From: an uncultured Candidatus Saccharibacteria bacterium
GTDB lineage: Bacteria > Patescibacteriota > Minisyncoccia > Phycocordibacterales > CAYGLL01
Length of the DNA: 64,000 nt
Assembly: GCA_964350935.1 (NCBI GenBank)
Contig: CAYGLL010000005.1
Span: forward strand, 1,544-65,543
Direction: 5' to 3'
In this document: in pieces, positions 6,075 to 32,225 of the stretch
Numbering within the stretch: the stretch's first letter is position 1
How the letters are laid out: every line of letters begins with the position of its first letter
Made by a program: the position numbers and the translations under genes
Notes under the pieces: model-generated
What the model was told of the DNA's origin: nothing
Databases searched by the model: none
Seen by the model: the letters and a program-made list of their open reading frames with translations, nothing else

Positions 6075-6180
6075 GCGCGCGACCTAAATCTCTTGAGCGA
6101 CTTATTCCCTTCGAGCGAAGCGCGGCAGGGATTAGGAGTGCCTGTGGCGCGAAGCGATTAGAGATTGGAAGCACTCTTGT
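6075..6180. repeat. Intergenic repeat family 1, copy 1 (between argS and adk)
   Basis: See copy 2. Contains three GCGAAGCG motifs and the complementary segments AATCTCT/AGAGATT. Confidence 0.7.
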
Positions 6181-6210
6181 AGCGAAGCGCACCACTAACT
6201 TTTAAAGCGA

Positions 6211-20489: not shown

Positions 20490-21326
20490 TCAAAAGACCA
20501 TGCGGGGGAACTTTCTCACGCGCGTGAGAAGCTCCTTATTGGTGTACTTTTTTCGAAGAATCGGCTGCCACTCGTTAGGTGAGAGCGTCAAATCCCAAGG
20601 ACAGAGAGACCGAACCCACGCGTAGTACGGATGGACCACCGTGCTCTGTGGACACACGCGTGTGTAGTGAATGATCTGACAGTTGTGAATATCGTGGAAT
20701 GGATCTTTGGAATTTTTCCGCCGATTGAACTCGTCAATCGAGTAGCGTTCGAGGCGAGTCCGAAATGCCCACATCATCTCACCGTGACAAACCATGATGA
20801 CACTTTTTCCCACATACTCTCGATGGAGCGTATGGAGGACGCGATCTCCACGCAGGCACACATCGGCCACACTCAAACCATTCTGAGGAATCCACAGTAG
20901 TGGCTCCCGCTTTCGCGCTTCATTTGCCTCAGCGTGAATGGTCGTTCGCTTGCTCGCAGGTAAATGCTCCATCACTCCACCATCACGTTCACGCAAGTAG
21001 AGCTCGGATTTCCAGAGCGCCCCACGTAGGCCAAGAAGTGCGGCAGTTTCCATCGCACGAACATACTCGGATGTGAAATAACCGTCAAAGCGTTTGGAGA
21101 TGTTCTCCTTGATCCATACGCCGGCTGCGCGAGCCTGAGATCGACCAGTCGACGTAAGACGCCACTGCCAACTGTGGCGATTCTTGAATTCTTCAGTATA
21201 GGCGCTCTCGTCATTTTCATGGAACGATCGTCGTATTGCCAGATTTCCCTCGGATTCGCCATGACGAACGAGGATAAGGTGTAGCGGCATTGCCATAGCT
21301 GTATTTCCTTTCTTGACCCGCCCCAA
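20490..21326 (-). CDS. Histidine phosphatase superfamily protein (phosphoglycerate mutase-like)
   Basis: LHLILVRHGESEGN contains the RHGE catalytic motif. The second catalytic His lies in VIMVCHGEMM. 278 aa. Confidence 0.65.
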   Translation of the reverse strand: MGRVKKGNTAMAMPLHLILVRHGESEGNLAIRRSFHENDESAYTEEFKNRHSWQWRLTSTGRSQARAAGVWIKENISKRFDGYFTSEYVRAMETAALLGLRGALWKSELYLRERDGGVMEHLPASKRTTIHAEANEARKREPLLWIPQNGLSVADVCLRGDRVLHTLHREYVGKSVIMVCHGEMMWAFRTRLERYSIDEFNRRKNSKDPFHDIHNCQIIHYTRVCPQSTVVHPYYAWVRSLCPWDLTLSPNEWQPILRKKYTNKELLTRVRKFPRMVF

Positions 21327-21444: not shown

Positions 21445-21831
21445 TCACTTGGCACCGAGACTCGGCCCGGGCAGAGCGTGGTCATTCCAAGTGTGCGAAA
21501 TGTCACGATGCGAACAGGTCGGCACCTCAGCCACCGTGCCGATGGTATAGGTGCCACTGGCAGGACAGGTTGGCTCGTCGCGGATGTAGTTCTGCGAGCC
21601 GTAGAGCTCTGTCGCTGCCGGCGTGTCCGTGCCGACCTTCTTCTTCTCGATGGCCCAGGTCGCCTTGGCGCCATCAATCTGCTTGAGATTGGCGACACAG
21701 GCGTTCTTGTGAGACGTAGCTCGCGCTCGGACGAAGTTCGGAATCGCGATCGCGGCCAAGAGGCCGATAATGGCGACGACGATCATGATTTCGACGAGGG
21801 TAAATGCGTTTCGGGATTTGTTCATGTTCAT
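21445..21831 (-). CDS. Type IV pilin / pseudopilin-like protein with prepilin N-terminal methylation motif
   Basis: MNMNKSRNAFTLVEIMIVVAIIGLLAAIAIPNF carries the class III signal (G/A-F-T-L-(V/I)-E) followed by a hydrophobic helix. 128 aa. A canonical promoter lies upstream. Confidence 0.8.
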   Translation of the reverse strand: MNMNKSRNAFTLVEIMIVVAIIGLLAAIAIPNFVRARATSHKNACVANLKQIDGAKATWAIEKKKVGTDTPAATELYGSQNYIRDEPTCPASGTYTIGTVAEVPTCSHRDISHTWNDHALPGPSLGAK

Positions 21832-21919: not shown

Positions 21920-21949
21920 AAAAAACGGCTCAGTAGGAGCCGTTTTTGT
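21920..21949. terminator. Bidirectional hairpin terminator immediately after rplK
   Basis: AAAAACGGCTC-AGTAG-GAGCCGTTTTT is symmetric with A/T runs on both sides. It sits directly downstream of rplK on the minus strand, so rplK is not followed by rplA here. Confidence 0.6.
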
Positions 21950-21967: not shown

Positions 21968-22390
21968 TTATTTGATATCGACTCCCATTGCTCTTGCAGA
22001 TCCTTGAATTGTTCTCATCGCAGATTCAACTGAATTTACTGCGAGATCTTTCATTTTACGCTCAGCGATCTCTTGAAGCTGACCCTTAGTGATTGATCCG
22101 GCTTTGGCAGTTGCGTTCTTTCCCGATCCTTTTTCAATCTTAGCTGCTTTCTTAATCAAATAGGCCGCGGGTGGCTGATGAAGGTCGAGTTGGAAGGTTT
22201 TGTCATCGTAAATCATAACGTTGACCGGAACCAATTCCCCCATTCGATCTTTGGTTGCCGTGTTAAACCGGCTCACAAATTCACCGATGTTAACCTTTGC
22301 CTGACCAAGTGCAGGGCCAATAGGCGGCGCGGCTGAAGCTTTGCCTCCGTCAATTGCTAACTTAAGTTTTCTGACCAATTTTTTTGCCAT
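21968..22390 (-). CDS. rplK: 50S ribosomal protein L11
   Basis: 140 aa. KLAIDGGKASAAPPIGPALGQAKVNIGEFVSRFN and the C-terminal TKGQLQEIAE match L11. Confidence 0.92.
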   Translation of the reverse strand: MAKKLVRKLKLAIDGGKASAAPPIGPALGQAKVNIGEFVSRFNTATKDRMGELVPVNVMIYDDKTFQLDLHQPPAAYLIKKAAKIEKGSGKNATAKAGSITKGQLQEIAERKMKDLAVNSVESAMRTIQGSARAMGVDIK

Positions 22391-22392
22391 GA

Positions 22393-22510
22393 TTGATTTT
22401 TCTTAGTGAGCGGAGCGAGCTTAGAAACAATCCTCACCCCGTGGAGTACAAATCTAGCAGATTTGTATTTGCGAAGCAAATTACTCCACGGGGTTAACAA
22501 TTATATAGTC
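22393..22510 (-). ncRNA. Conserved 5' leader element of rplK (hairpin CCCCGUGGAGUA...UACUCCACGGGG), paralogous to the secE leader
   Basis: A 12-bp stem with a ~33-nt loop lies directly between a -10-like TATAAT and the rplK ATG. A near-identical element precedes secE (23274-23400) with similar flanks. Confidence 0.45.
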
Positions 22511-22528
22511 GTTCTACTCCTTATAATT

Positions 22529-23074
22529 CTAAATTTTACGAATTTGCAAGAAGTCGAGCTCAACTGGAGTTTCGCGCCCGAACATTGAGACCAACACCTT
22601 GATTTTGCCGCGTTCATTGTCGACTTCGAACACTTTACCTTCAAGATCTTTAAAGGGACCGTCAACGATGGTAACCGCATCATCAACCACAAGGTCAATG
22701 TTATGTTTTACCGTATCAGCGTTCATGCGGCGGAAGAGTTCGTCAATTTCCTTCTGCTCCAAGGGAACAGGAAACACACCTGAACCTACGAAACCGGTGA
22801 CGCGCGGCGTGTTACGGACCACGTACCACGAGTCGTCGGTAACAATCATATCTACCAAAACATATCCGGGATATATTTTTTCTTCTTCTTCAACGCGCTT
22901 GCCTCCCTTAACCTTGATCTTCTTTTCAGTTGGTACGACAACGGCAAAAATCTTAGACTCCATGCCCAGAGACTCAATGCGCTGTTTCAAATTGCGGCAC
23001 ACCGCATTTTCGTACCCAGCATACGTATGAATTGCATACCAACTGCGAGACCCTTCGTTTTGTTGTTTTGCCAT
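22529..23074 (-). CDS. nusG: Transcription termination/antitermination factor NusG
   Basis: NGN domain (WYAIHTYAGYENAVCRNLKQRI) and KOW domain (GDAVTIVDGPFKDLEGKVFEVDNERGKIKVLVSMFGRETPVELDFLQI). The start is taken at the internal Met (MAKQQ). The listed ORF runs further upstream into non-coding sequence. Confidence 0.9.
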   Translation of the reverse strand: MAKQQNEGSRSWYAIHTYAGYENAVCRNLKQRIESLGMESKIFAVVVPTEKKIKVKGGKRVEEEEKIYPGYVLVDMIVTDDSWYVVRNTPRVTGFVGSGVFPVPLEQKEIDELFRRMNADTVKHNIDLVVDDAVTIVDGPFKDLEGKVFEVDNERGKIKVLVSMFGRETPVELDFLQIRKI

Positions 23075-23087
23075 GACTAAAAATAAA

Positions 23088-23273
23088 TTACTTAAGTATG
23101 ATGCTGTTGAGAGCCAGTGAGAAAATACCGTCAAAGATACCGAGGTATGCCGAAACTGCAACTGAAATTGCAACAACTGAAAGTGTGTAGCCGATCGCCT
23201 GTTTCCGTGTCGGCCACGAAACATGTTTCATCTCTGCGCGCGTTTCTTTAATATATTCAACAATTTTTGACAT
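23088..23273 (-). CDS. secE: Preprotein translocase subunit SecE
   Basis: 61 aa with a single C-terminal TM helix (IGYTLSVVAISVAVSAYLGIFDGIFSLAL). It sits in the conserved position immediately upstream of nusG. Confidence 0.8.
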   Translation of the reverse strand: MSKIVEYIKETRAEMKHVSWPTRKQAIGYTLSVVAISVAVSAYLGIFDGIFSLALNSIILK

Positions 23274-23400
23274 GAATGATTTTCTTAACGAACGAAGTGA
23301 GTCTATAGAAAATCTTTACCCCGTGGAATACAAATCCTTCAGATTTGAATGCGTAAAACACATTATTCCACGGGGTAAGAAAATACAGTCGCTTCGCTCC
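23274..23400 (-). ncRNA. Conserved 5' leader element of secE (hairpin CCCCGUGGAAUA...UAUUCCACGGGG), paralog of the rplK leader
   Basis: 12-bp stem and similar flanking sequence (CTTA..GAGCGAAG..) to the rplK leader. A terminator of the upstream gene sits at 23420-23440. Confidence 0.45.
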
Positions 23401-23489
23401 GAATTTTCTTACTAAAAAAGGCCCGACGGCCTTTATAGATGTGTATACTACTCTCTTTAAGGGCTTTGTCAAACACGCGCTCCCACGAT

Positions 23490-31925: not shown

Positions 31926-32000
31926 ACAAGATTTTTGTAGTTAAAAATATTTCCTTTAATCTCCAGAGCGAGAATCTCGATTTTAAAAACATTGTGAAGC

Positions 32001-32106
32001 TCGCGACCTAAATCTCTTGAGCGACTTAAATTCCTTCGAGCGAAGCGAGGTAGGGATTAGGAGTGCCTGTGGTGCGAAGCGATTAGAGATTGGAAGTACT
32101 CTTGTG
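32001..32106. repeat. Intergenic repeat family 1, copy 2 (~105 bp, ~92% identical to 6075-6180)
   Basis: The shared core runs CGCGACCTAAATCTCTTGAGCGACTTA and continues with one indel and ~4 mismatches over ~105 nt as (C/A)GG(C/T)AGGGATTAGGAGTGCCTGTGG(C/T)GCGAAGCGATTAGAGATTGGAAG(C/T)ACTCTTGT. Both copies are intergenic. Confidence 0.7.
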
Positions 32107-32225
32107 GTAACTGGTGCGAGCATAGTAATTTTCAGCGACCGAGCGTTGAGCGAGGAAGTACTGAGCTCAGCAGAGCGAATGTGCAGGATTTTATCCATGT
32201 TTTTAAAAAAGAGTTTGAGCGCCCC

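Follow-up and report, generated by a model that had tools for sequence, protein, structure and literature searches.

The window analysed here is a stretch of 64,000 nucleotides from the genome of an uncultured Candidatus Saccharibacteria bacterium (contig CAYGLL010000005.1, positions 1,544 to 65,543), and our subject is the pair of strongly structured leaders in its secE-nusG-rplK gene cluster, one before secE and the other before rplK, the gene for ribosomal protein L11. A first-pass annotation, made from the letters alone, had noticed a hairpin in each leader. We propose, with a probability of roughly 0.6, that each of these hairpins forms the middle stem of one copy of a modular palindrome some 125-140 nt long, a repeat present here twice and behaving at the level of DNA like the repetitive extragenic palindromes and bacterial interspersed mosaic elements (REP/BIME, REPIN) or like the miniature inverted-repeat transposable elements (MITEs). 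The repeat comprises three hairpins, called H1, H2 and H3 in the order of transcription, of which H2 is the hairpin first noticed. This reading follows from the absence of the element in some close relatives, from the exchange or inversion of H2 in others, and from the lack of any excess of G·U mismatches in the stems.

Each leader holds, exactly where it had been placed, a perfect 12-bp stem: CCCCGTGGAGTA at 22437-22448 with its reverse complement at 22482-22493 before rplK, and CCCCGTGGAATA at 23319-23330 and 23364-23375 before secE. Neither 12-nt stem has a further exact copy in the window. The interiors had been described as loops of about 33 nt; the length is indeed 33 nt, but they are not open, since each is made of two small inner hairpins, and each structure is therefore a Y-shaped junction. 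The leaders fold at -46.0 kcal/mol (rplK, z -6.3) and -48.2 kcal/mol (secE, z -7.0), and none of 200 shuffles was as good in either case. The likeness of the flanks, which had suggested paralogous leaders, is borne out and proves wider than had been claimed: it covers 22391-22533 and 23274-23413, or about 125 nt, and reaches each ATG, with a mean column identity of 80% over the aligned regions. All 25 base pairs of H2 are kept in both copies, and the differences consist of three double (compensatory) changes and two changes from U-A to U·G. Compensatory changes, to which the first-pass annotation had looked for a sign of conserved structure, are thus present between the window copies, but in a comparison of only two sequences the pattern is statistically weak, as 78 of 500 shuffles do as well.

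The modules of the element were defined by comparing the window copies with those of seven related loci (L005, L012, L024, L031, L041, L078 and L082). H1 is a 40-nt arm hairpin whose basal stem is rich in A and U, arbitrary in sequence and different from copy to copy, and whose apex is near-invariant and asymmetric (UAA-GGAGCGAAGCGAC-URUA, with GGAGCGAAGCGACURUA conserved). The folded apex contains one bulged purine besides a G-C pair, tandem G·A/A·G pairs, a mini-stem of 2 bp and a GNA triloop. H2, a GC-based hairpin (CCCC...GGGG), is hypervariable at its tip, and its interior ranges from a simple 12-bp hairpin in L082 to more than 100 nt in L012 and L024. H3 is the arm in reverse orientation, and its A-rich 3' strand runs up to the AUG; the best-preserved class reads UGGCGAUUUUUAUAGUCGCUUCGCUCCUUAAAAAUCAGCC-AUG, with the first U paired to the A of AUG. 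Across the family the elements measure about 105-230 nt, have inverted arms and contain no open reading frames (ORFs). Host coding sequence may supply the 5' strand of H1, which includes the nusG stop codon in the window, the last nusG codons in L024 and L099, and apparently the end of the upstream gene, rpoC by eye, in L141.

The minimum-free-energy structure that RNAfold gives for the window copies, in which a long-range duplex of the two arms (L:L') encloses H2, was rejected as the conserved fold. In the window rplK copy and in those of L192 and L121, each arm compensates internally, and no co-variation links L to L' of the same element; the conserved folds are therefore the separate arm hairpins and not the duplex. 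A covariance model of the arm (R1) finds only two elements in the window. It matches H1 of the secE copy at 23374-23413 (42.7 bits, E 3.7e-7) and H1 of the rplK copy with 46.9 bits (E 3.8e-8), the latter sequence having been in the model's training set. As a fold, H1 is well formed in the secE copy (-12 kcal/mol, z -3.3) and weak in the rplK copy (-4.5 kcal/mol). H3 of the secE copy is matched on the opposite strand at 23275-23317 (18.9 bits, E 0.2); that of the rplK copy has no R1 match and was placed by alignment.

The window NusG is 82-93% identical to proteins named Paceibacterota, Taylorbacteria or Patescibacteria, and our comparison set consisted of 80 nusG loci from species genomes together with closer relatives found by exact-protein look-up. 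Among the closest of these, filled and empty sites occur side by side. L081, whose NusG is 93% identical, has neither the secE nor the rplK copy, and on contig P0004 (88%) the nusG-rplK gap is empty and only 16 nt long; L209/L210 (92%) have both sites filled, and L082 (89%) has a secE H1 essentially identical to that of the window next to an unrelated H2. The secE copy of L209 is orthologous to ours, and its H2 interior shows 24 of 36 identities to the reverse complement versus 17 of 36 in the same orientation, which we therefore read as an inversion between the two arms of the 12-bp H2 stem (P1). The rplK copies of L209 and L082 have in common a different, 110-nt H2; the window rplK H2 has therefore been overwritten by the secE type, and the two window hairpins look paralogous because the central part was copied within the genome. 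H2 types are also common to copies that precede different genes.

H2 is thus the least conserved part of the element, being absent, replaced or inverted in its interior in relatives with 89-93% identical NusG, and a role as a specific binding site for a regulator, or as a mimic of the L1 or L11 site in rRNA, is therefore unlikely. This bears on two suggestions of the first-pass annotation. A site for a regulator common to both genes now appears unlikely, whereas a lineage-specific stem-loop comes close to the truth. It also bears on the idea of an autoregulatory leader, in which the Y-junction would imitate a ribosomal-protein site such as the three-way junction at which 23S rRNA binds L11 or L1. 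The L11-binding domain is 58 nt long, and the three-way junction of about 57 nt that H2 forms before rplK recalls that size class. The same junction precedes secE, however, and orthologous copies lack the interior, have it inverted, or carry simple hairpins or inserts of 70-130 nt in its place. Moreover, no ribosomal-protein leader of Rfam is matched, rplA is not adjacent, and the structure is neither conserved in orthologous leaders, most of the 80 relatives having a nusG-rplK gap of 10-60 nt (full range 7-434 nt), nor specific to one operon, since about 20 other genes are preceded by the same element. We accordingly give this idea almost no credence.

The element is not peculiar to rplK and secE. 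An exact search with the conserved 17-mer GGAGCGAAGCGACTRTA returned at least 120 metagenome contigs. Among the 117 non-redundant matches listed, 53 have at least six contiguous flanking pairs in a fixed register, while shuffled partners give a mean of 6.2 and a maximum of 13. In a gapless alignment of 58 arms, 84.8% of the cells are paired, as opposed to 63.5% after shuffling and 40-47% in slid registers, and 14 of the 16 pairs show changes on both sides. For 47 of these arms, pairing at the six positions next to the apex had been the criterion of choice; columns 4-6 are independent of it and still pair in 41-54 of the 58 rows. The mini-stem of the apex covaries as well (C-G to U-A, G-C to A-U), with no loss of the tandem G·A/A·G pairs or of the GNA loop. 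In the transcript sense the mismatches of the arm stems comprise 29 G·U versus 44 A·C. An RNA-specific pairing signal in the form of a G·U excess is thus lacking, and the balance argues for inverted repeats maintained at the DNA level and against RNA helices under long selection.

Applied to 617 kb around nusG in 85 relatives, the arm model finds 13 arms in 9 loci, of which 11-12, judged by position, lie in secE-nusG-rplK spacers; flank motifs likewise occur in 9 of the 85 nusG loci, before secE, nusG or rplK. The family is widespread in Patescibacteria-type metagenome contigs. The first-pass annotation had held that dozens of copies genome-wide would mark a generic dispersed repeat: the family as a whole is dispersed in this way, but the window holds only two copies. 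Viral contigs gave three matches to the 17-mer, none with hairpin flanks, and an origin from phage was rejected on this account.

The first-pass annotation also held that a shared leader element of this kind is not a known feature, and the Rfam check agrees. The window has no match at gathering thresholds, and at E-values up to 10 it draws only spurious microRNA and small nucleolar RNA models, the best being plant microRNA models at 28.5 bits against a threshold of 87; the arms of 12 related loci match nothing in Rfam. A full-text literature search for the 12-nt apex core returned only unrelated matches (a Legionella microarray and a rat asthma study), and literature searches on REP-like repeats of the candidate phyla radiation (CPR) found nothing relevant. 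This three-hairpin repeat family of CPR bacteria is thus apparently undescribed. Two further identities were considered by eye and dropped. A hammerhead, other ribozyme or k-turn built on the 'UGAUGA' of the 3' arm has no Rfam support, and the window copies read UGAGGA and UAAAGA; core sites like those of integron attC in H2 (GTTAAAT...ATTTAAC) are in the wrong order, and the motif occurs in one H2 subtype only.

It had further been claimed that each hairpin stands directly after a -10-like hexamer and hence forms the 5' end of its transcript, where a stem-loop would stabilise the mRNA or serve a regulator specific to the secE and L11 promoters. TATAAT does stand 7 nt before H2 in the rplK copy, some family members show a spacing like TAGAAA-N18-TATAAT, and H2 is very stable. 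Nevertheless, the hexamer lies within the conserved arm hairpin H1 (...GCGACUAUA followed by an A/U run) and has no -35 partner, and a promoter scan finds no site there. In the secE copy the hexamer is TGTATT and not TATAAT; it varies among family copies, and in many of them it is followed by an A-run instead of a T-run. With no scan match, poor -35 candidates and a variable hexamer, a promoter inside the element was rejected. H2, moreover, is the very part that is swapped or inverted in close relatives.

The transcript of secE appears to begin elsewhere, for a canonical promoter that is conserved in relatives lies upstream of the secE element. In almost all relatives the order is canonical promoter, tiny GC hairpin with U-tract, and secE ATG, and the window shares this order: of 76 loci, 66 have the hairpin with its T-tract before secE, and in 49 of the 66 it is preceded by TTGAY...TANNNT. 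The secE copy of the element is inserted between the small GC hairpin and the ATG, and is therefore internal to the 5' untranslated region (UTR), while the rplK copy starts on the nusG stop codon and is therefore intercistronic. Taken together, these observations make a 5'-terminal hairpin very improbable. In the secE leaders of loci L001-L080 the distance from promoter to GC hairpin is about 10-30 nt, and the hairpin is often CCCC-GNRA-GGGG followed by U6. This terminator-like hairpin in the 5' UTR of secE-nusG could be an attenuator, possibly sensitive to NusG, or a 5' stabiliser.

Nus factors, which the first-pass annotation had named among the possible common regulators, enter into another explanation of the arms. 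Elements of the boxA type at distances of up to 50 nt from start codons regulate suhB and translation-related genes (PMC5725501). The gene-proximal arm, GCUC(N)UUAAAAA, resembles boxA (GYUCUUUAANA), and as a target of NusB-S10 it would place nusG, nusA and ribosomal-protein genes under Nus-dependent antitermination or translational repression. The arms have the consensus GCUCCUUAAAA, which agrees with the boxA consensus of gamma-proteobacteria at 10 of 11 positions, and they stand before nusG, nusA and the secE-nusG operon. A manual count on the alignment, however, gives only about 8 of 21 arms that agree with the consensus even when it is relaxed, and the A-rich half lies in a covarying stem in which it is free to vary (CUCCUUAUACAUC and CUCCUUACUUUUU, for instance). 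In the folded arm the motif would be paired, in half of all arms it is the complement that is presented, and the boxA-like part takes in only a minor share of the conserved 17-mer; the 23S leader of L116, furthermore, has a different boxA-like sequence, ACUUUGAACAAUC. A boxA function is thus improbable, and the likeness is partial and probably coincidental.

All examined copies lie in intergenic spacers. Among the matches listed, gene-proximal arms adjoin the start codons of about 20 different genes. Those confirmed by Pfam encode L10, NusA, DnaG, S13, RpoA, EF-G, GroEL, L24, CysRS, a holin-like protein, L31, MetK, S19, an NYN protein, NusG, a pyrophosphatase, L36, S18, L35 and L11; SecE is added from the leader comparisons of relatives, and S11 and L5 from reading the translations of L196 and L194. 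Single ribosomal-protein operons carry two or three arms in these two loci, and there are up to three arms per 2 kb. In L196 (5951-8387) arms precede rpsM, rpsK and rpoA of the alpha operon, and in L194 (8661-9961) they precede rplX and rplE of the spc operon; arms before consecutive cistrons stretch the normally tiny spacers of such operons to 100-200 nt. Single arms also occur 5-8 nt past the 3' ends of tRNAs, on the tRNA strand. Six of these are confirmed by ARAGORN (L102, L115, L133, L140, L163 and L172), and a seventh, in L152, was read from the sequence.

Several observations weigh against regarding the element simply as a dispersed repeat. Classical REPs and MITEs number dozens to hundreds of copies per genome, and the density here is low, at two per 64 kb. 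The GTAG head is missing and there is no clear target-site duplication; a 9-nt direct repeat, TAAGAAAAT, flanks the secE copy, but it is not general, other copies showing only A-rich similarity. The widely spaced arm pairs of L196 and L194, which might have held a transposase, enclose rpsM, rpsK and rplX and no transposase, no genome-wide protein search having been made. The H3 arms of the window are degenerate, with weak folds (-6.7 kcal/mol for rplK and -6.8 kcal/mol for secE) that are no better than shuffles. Above all, the placement is non-random in a way that a neutral selfish repeat does not predict: 12 of the 21 aligned gene-proximal arms lie in an identical 43-nt register that ends at the A of AUG, and about 60% of the adjoined genes belong to the translation or transcription apparatus. 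Finally, the post-tRNA arms are always on the tRNA strand, and this constancy hints at a strand-specific role, of RNA or of single-stranded DNA.

The low local copy number, the missing GTAG, the lack of a clear target duplication, the AUG register and the gene bias leave room for an operator- or processing-type function of the arm, which we hold to be possible but unlikely. One form of it is a translational operator regulon, in which an RNA-binding protein or the ribosome would recognise the arm apex at the AUG hairpin and so coordinate ribosomal proteins, Nus factors, EF-G, RpoA and GroEL, the spread of the repeat being the route of distribution. The fixed register, in which the closing pair falls on A(+1), is consistent with such a regulon, as are the bias towards translation and transcription genes, the several arms per ribosomal-protein operon, and an apex that stays near-invariant in very different contexts. 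The H3 stems also covary, from GGC/GCC to GAU/AUC to GAC/GUC and from UUUUU/AAAAA to UGUAU/AUACA. On the other hand, the closest relatives manage without the element, and the gene-proximal arms expose the pyrimidine strand (L'), which is unable to form the covarying tandem G·A/GNA structure, while the opposite strand is the one exposed by arms that follow tRNAs and stop codons. The stems have no G·U excess, the H3 arms of the window are degenerate, and no candidate binding protein has been identified. We therefore consider the regulon doubtful, though worth keeping in view.

A bolder version, to which we attach similarly little weight, is that the arm is a 'cistron-start module' found throughout the Patescibacteria: a portable conserved hairpin whose base falls precisely on the start codon, spread between genes by copying at the DNA level, and recognised by a trans-acting factor or nuclease that controls initiation or cuts the mRNA beside the AUG. 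If this were true, the module would be a mobile regulon for the translation apparatus, acting on polycistronic ribosomal-protein, Nus-factor and chaperone mRNAs, and it would serve organisms that apparently have no Shine-Dalgarno sequences at the adjoining genes.

On the reading that we prefer, that of a DNA-level repeat, the element is gained or lost between close relatives as a dispersed repeat, its central part is swapped between copies within a genome, and its interior can invert between the P1 arms. It is co-transcribed in either position, as 5' UTR of secE and as nusG-rplK spacer of rplK. In the RNA, a stable structure would then stand just upstream of the start, with H3 pairing positions -1 to about -13 together with the A of AUG, and such a structure may tune initiation, stability or processing of the downstream cistron. 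Candidates for an effect on the expression of secE and rplK are occlusion of these positions by H3, stabilisation or processing by H2, and a bound factor. Since the H3 arms of the window are weak and degenerate, any occlusion of the start codon here would be modest. The family's strong preference for genes of translation and transcription suggests that the effect is used, or at least tolerated, at such genes.

CPR bacteria are uncultured and, to our knowledge, almost nothing is known of their gene regulation. Here a repeat family fills spacers in ribosomal-protein operons that are ultra-compact in other respects, keeping a fixed register with the start codon, and it may represent either a novel form of selfish DNA that minimal genomes tolerate or a handle on the start, processing or coordination of the core translation machinery. 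For annotation, the element explains the anomalously long spacers of the secE-nusG-rplK cluster, and its central hairpins should not be taken for riboswitch-like regulators.

Table 1. Genes, signals and element modules in the secE-nusG-rplK region of the window.
Feature	Position	Strand	Basis or content
Sigma-70-type promoter-like TTGACA-N16-TAGTAT	23445..23472	-	Promoter scan; outside the repeat element, upstream of the secE leader
Small GC hairpin GGCCGUCGGGCC, then U6	23414..23431	-	Conserved feature of the secE 5' UTR in relatives; element starts a few nt downstream
secE copy, arm H1	23376..23413	-	Stem GUAAGAAAAU/AUUUUCUUAC; conserved apex GGAGCGAAGCGACUGUA
secE copy, central hairpin H2	23319..23375	-	Hairpin of the first-pass annotation; P1 12 bp CCCCGUGGAAUA; interior two small hairpins
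secE copy, gene-proximal arm H3	23274..23318	-	Degenerate, reverse-oriented; apex GACUCACUUCGUUCG; A-rich 3' strand UUAAGAAAAUCAUUC adjoins secE AUG
secE coding sequence	23088..23273	-	ORF list; orthologues carry PF00584
nusG coding sequence	22529..23075	-	Stop codon 22529-22531 inside 5' strand of rplK-copy H1
rplK copy, arm H1	22494..22533	-	Apex GGAGUAGAACGACUAUA; compensated mini-stem, U-A replacing C-G
rplK copy, central hairpin H2	22437..22493	-	Hairpin of the first-pass annotation; P1 12 bp CCCCGUGGAGUA; two-hairpin interior
rplK copy, gene-proximal arm H3	22391..22436	-	Degenerate; apex CUCGCUCCGCUCAC; 3' strand UAAGAAAAAUCAAUC adjoins rplK AUG
rplK (ribosomal protein L11) coding sequence	21968..22390	-	Pfam PF03946 + PF00298
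Terminator-like hairpin and T-run 3' of rplK	21921..21947	-	Promoter/terminator scan

The features of the region are collected in Table 1. As had been noted at first pass, rplK is followed by a terminator and not by an adjacent rplA. Next comes a type IV pilin-like gene (21445-21831, minus strand), whose product has the N-terminus ...FTLVEIMIVVAIIGLLAAIAIP and whose local GC content is up to 0.51, and after it a histidine-phosphatase-like gene (20490-21326). In close relatives a His_Phos_1 gene lies directly 3' of rplK, and for this reason the pilin-like gene looks like an insertion in the lineage of the window. A scan of the window for tRNA and transfer-messenger RNA genes found none.

The longer nusG-rplK spacers among relatives contain several palindromes unrelated to the element; those of L004, L011, L015, L017, L019, L061, L065 and L070 hold different and unrelated long ones. 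The palindrome CATTCCCGCGAAAGCGGGAATCCAG of L019 and L061 recalls the dRS3 consensus of Neisseria, which is ATTCCC-N8-GGGAAT. The nusG-rplK spacer appears to be a hotspot for palindromic insertions.

The window also contains two copies of a second repeat family, at 6075-6200 and 31999-32120 on the plus strand, which are 95-97% identical over about 110 nt; their cores are GAGCGAAGCG and GCGAAGCGATT, they lie antisense to the flanking genes, and they have no Rfam match. The frame of this family, GCGACCTA-stem-...-stem-GGAAG(T/C)ACTCTTGT, is the unit that bears a canonical arm hairpin in the metagenome loci L122, L128, L138, L151, L157 and L174. In L125, L164 and L173 at least three copies of the arm core (GGAGCGAAGCGACTATAAAAATGGAAATGCCTTTGGCGAAA) are arrayed in tandem as direct repeats, with a period of 41 nt. 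Seven soil and rhizosphere contigs (L100, L103, L108, L126, L160, L199 and L206) contain a nearly perfect palindrome, about 105 bp long, that has the 17-mer in inverted orientation at its two ends and is laid out as GAATCAGAACA-GGAGCGAAGCGACTGTA-CGCAAGAGAGC...reverse complement, like a MITE or REPIN; these ends suggest that the arm core may be recognised by something widespread.

Among known systems, the REP/BIME (REPIN) repeats of proteobacteria come first: short palindromes of 20-40 nt with a GTAG/CTAC foot and a cognate REP-associated tyrosine transposase (RAYT, a Y1 transposase). The present element resembles them in its extragenic 40-nt unit, an imperfect palindrome with an asymmetric conserved part, in the inverted pair of H1 and H3 that forms a larger hairpin around the H2 spacer, and in the singlets that follow tRNAs. 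It resembles them also in lying at gene ends and inside operons, in being co-transcribed, and in having its sequences homogenised within a genome. It differs in what appears to be a much lower copy number (two elements per 64 kb in the window), in an arm consensus, UAAGGAGCGAAGCGACURUA, without GTAG, and in that no RAYT gene was identified, no genome-wide protein search having been made. Its apex, furthermore, is kept across many organisms rather than being one sequence per genome, and one arm adjoins start codons in a fixed register, mostly at translation genes.

Correia elements of Neisseria and MITEs such as ERIC and RUP/BOX offer a second comparison. Correia-type elements insert next to genes, and the hairpins into which they are transcribed can change the processing and expression of the mRNA. 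The element shares with this group the size class of 100-150 bp, the inverted ends and the presence or absence between strains, and it also has the general marks of a MITE, namely terminal inverted repeats, a size between 50 and 500 bp and no coding capacity. On the other hand, it shows no clear duplication of TA or of another target and is not known to have a related transposase, its ends are hairpins in which the outer strand may consist of host sequence such as the final codons of nusG, and its central part is hypervariable.

The boxA/Nus targets upstream of suhB and of translation genes (PMC5725501) are similar in having a motif of the GCUC-UUAA type no more than about 20 nt from the start codons of Nus-factor and translation-related genes, whereas in the arms this motif is only partly conserved, embedded in a stem and replaced by its complement in half of the cases. 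Lastly, unlike the start-codon operator hairpins, such as the MS2 replicase operator, and the ribosomal-protein leaders, the arms form one family at some 20 unrelated genes, are dispensable in close relatives and do not mimic rRNA; what they have in common with these systems is a conserved hairpin whose 3' strand reaches the initiation codon, and a place before ribosomal-protein genes.

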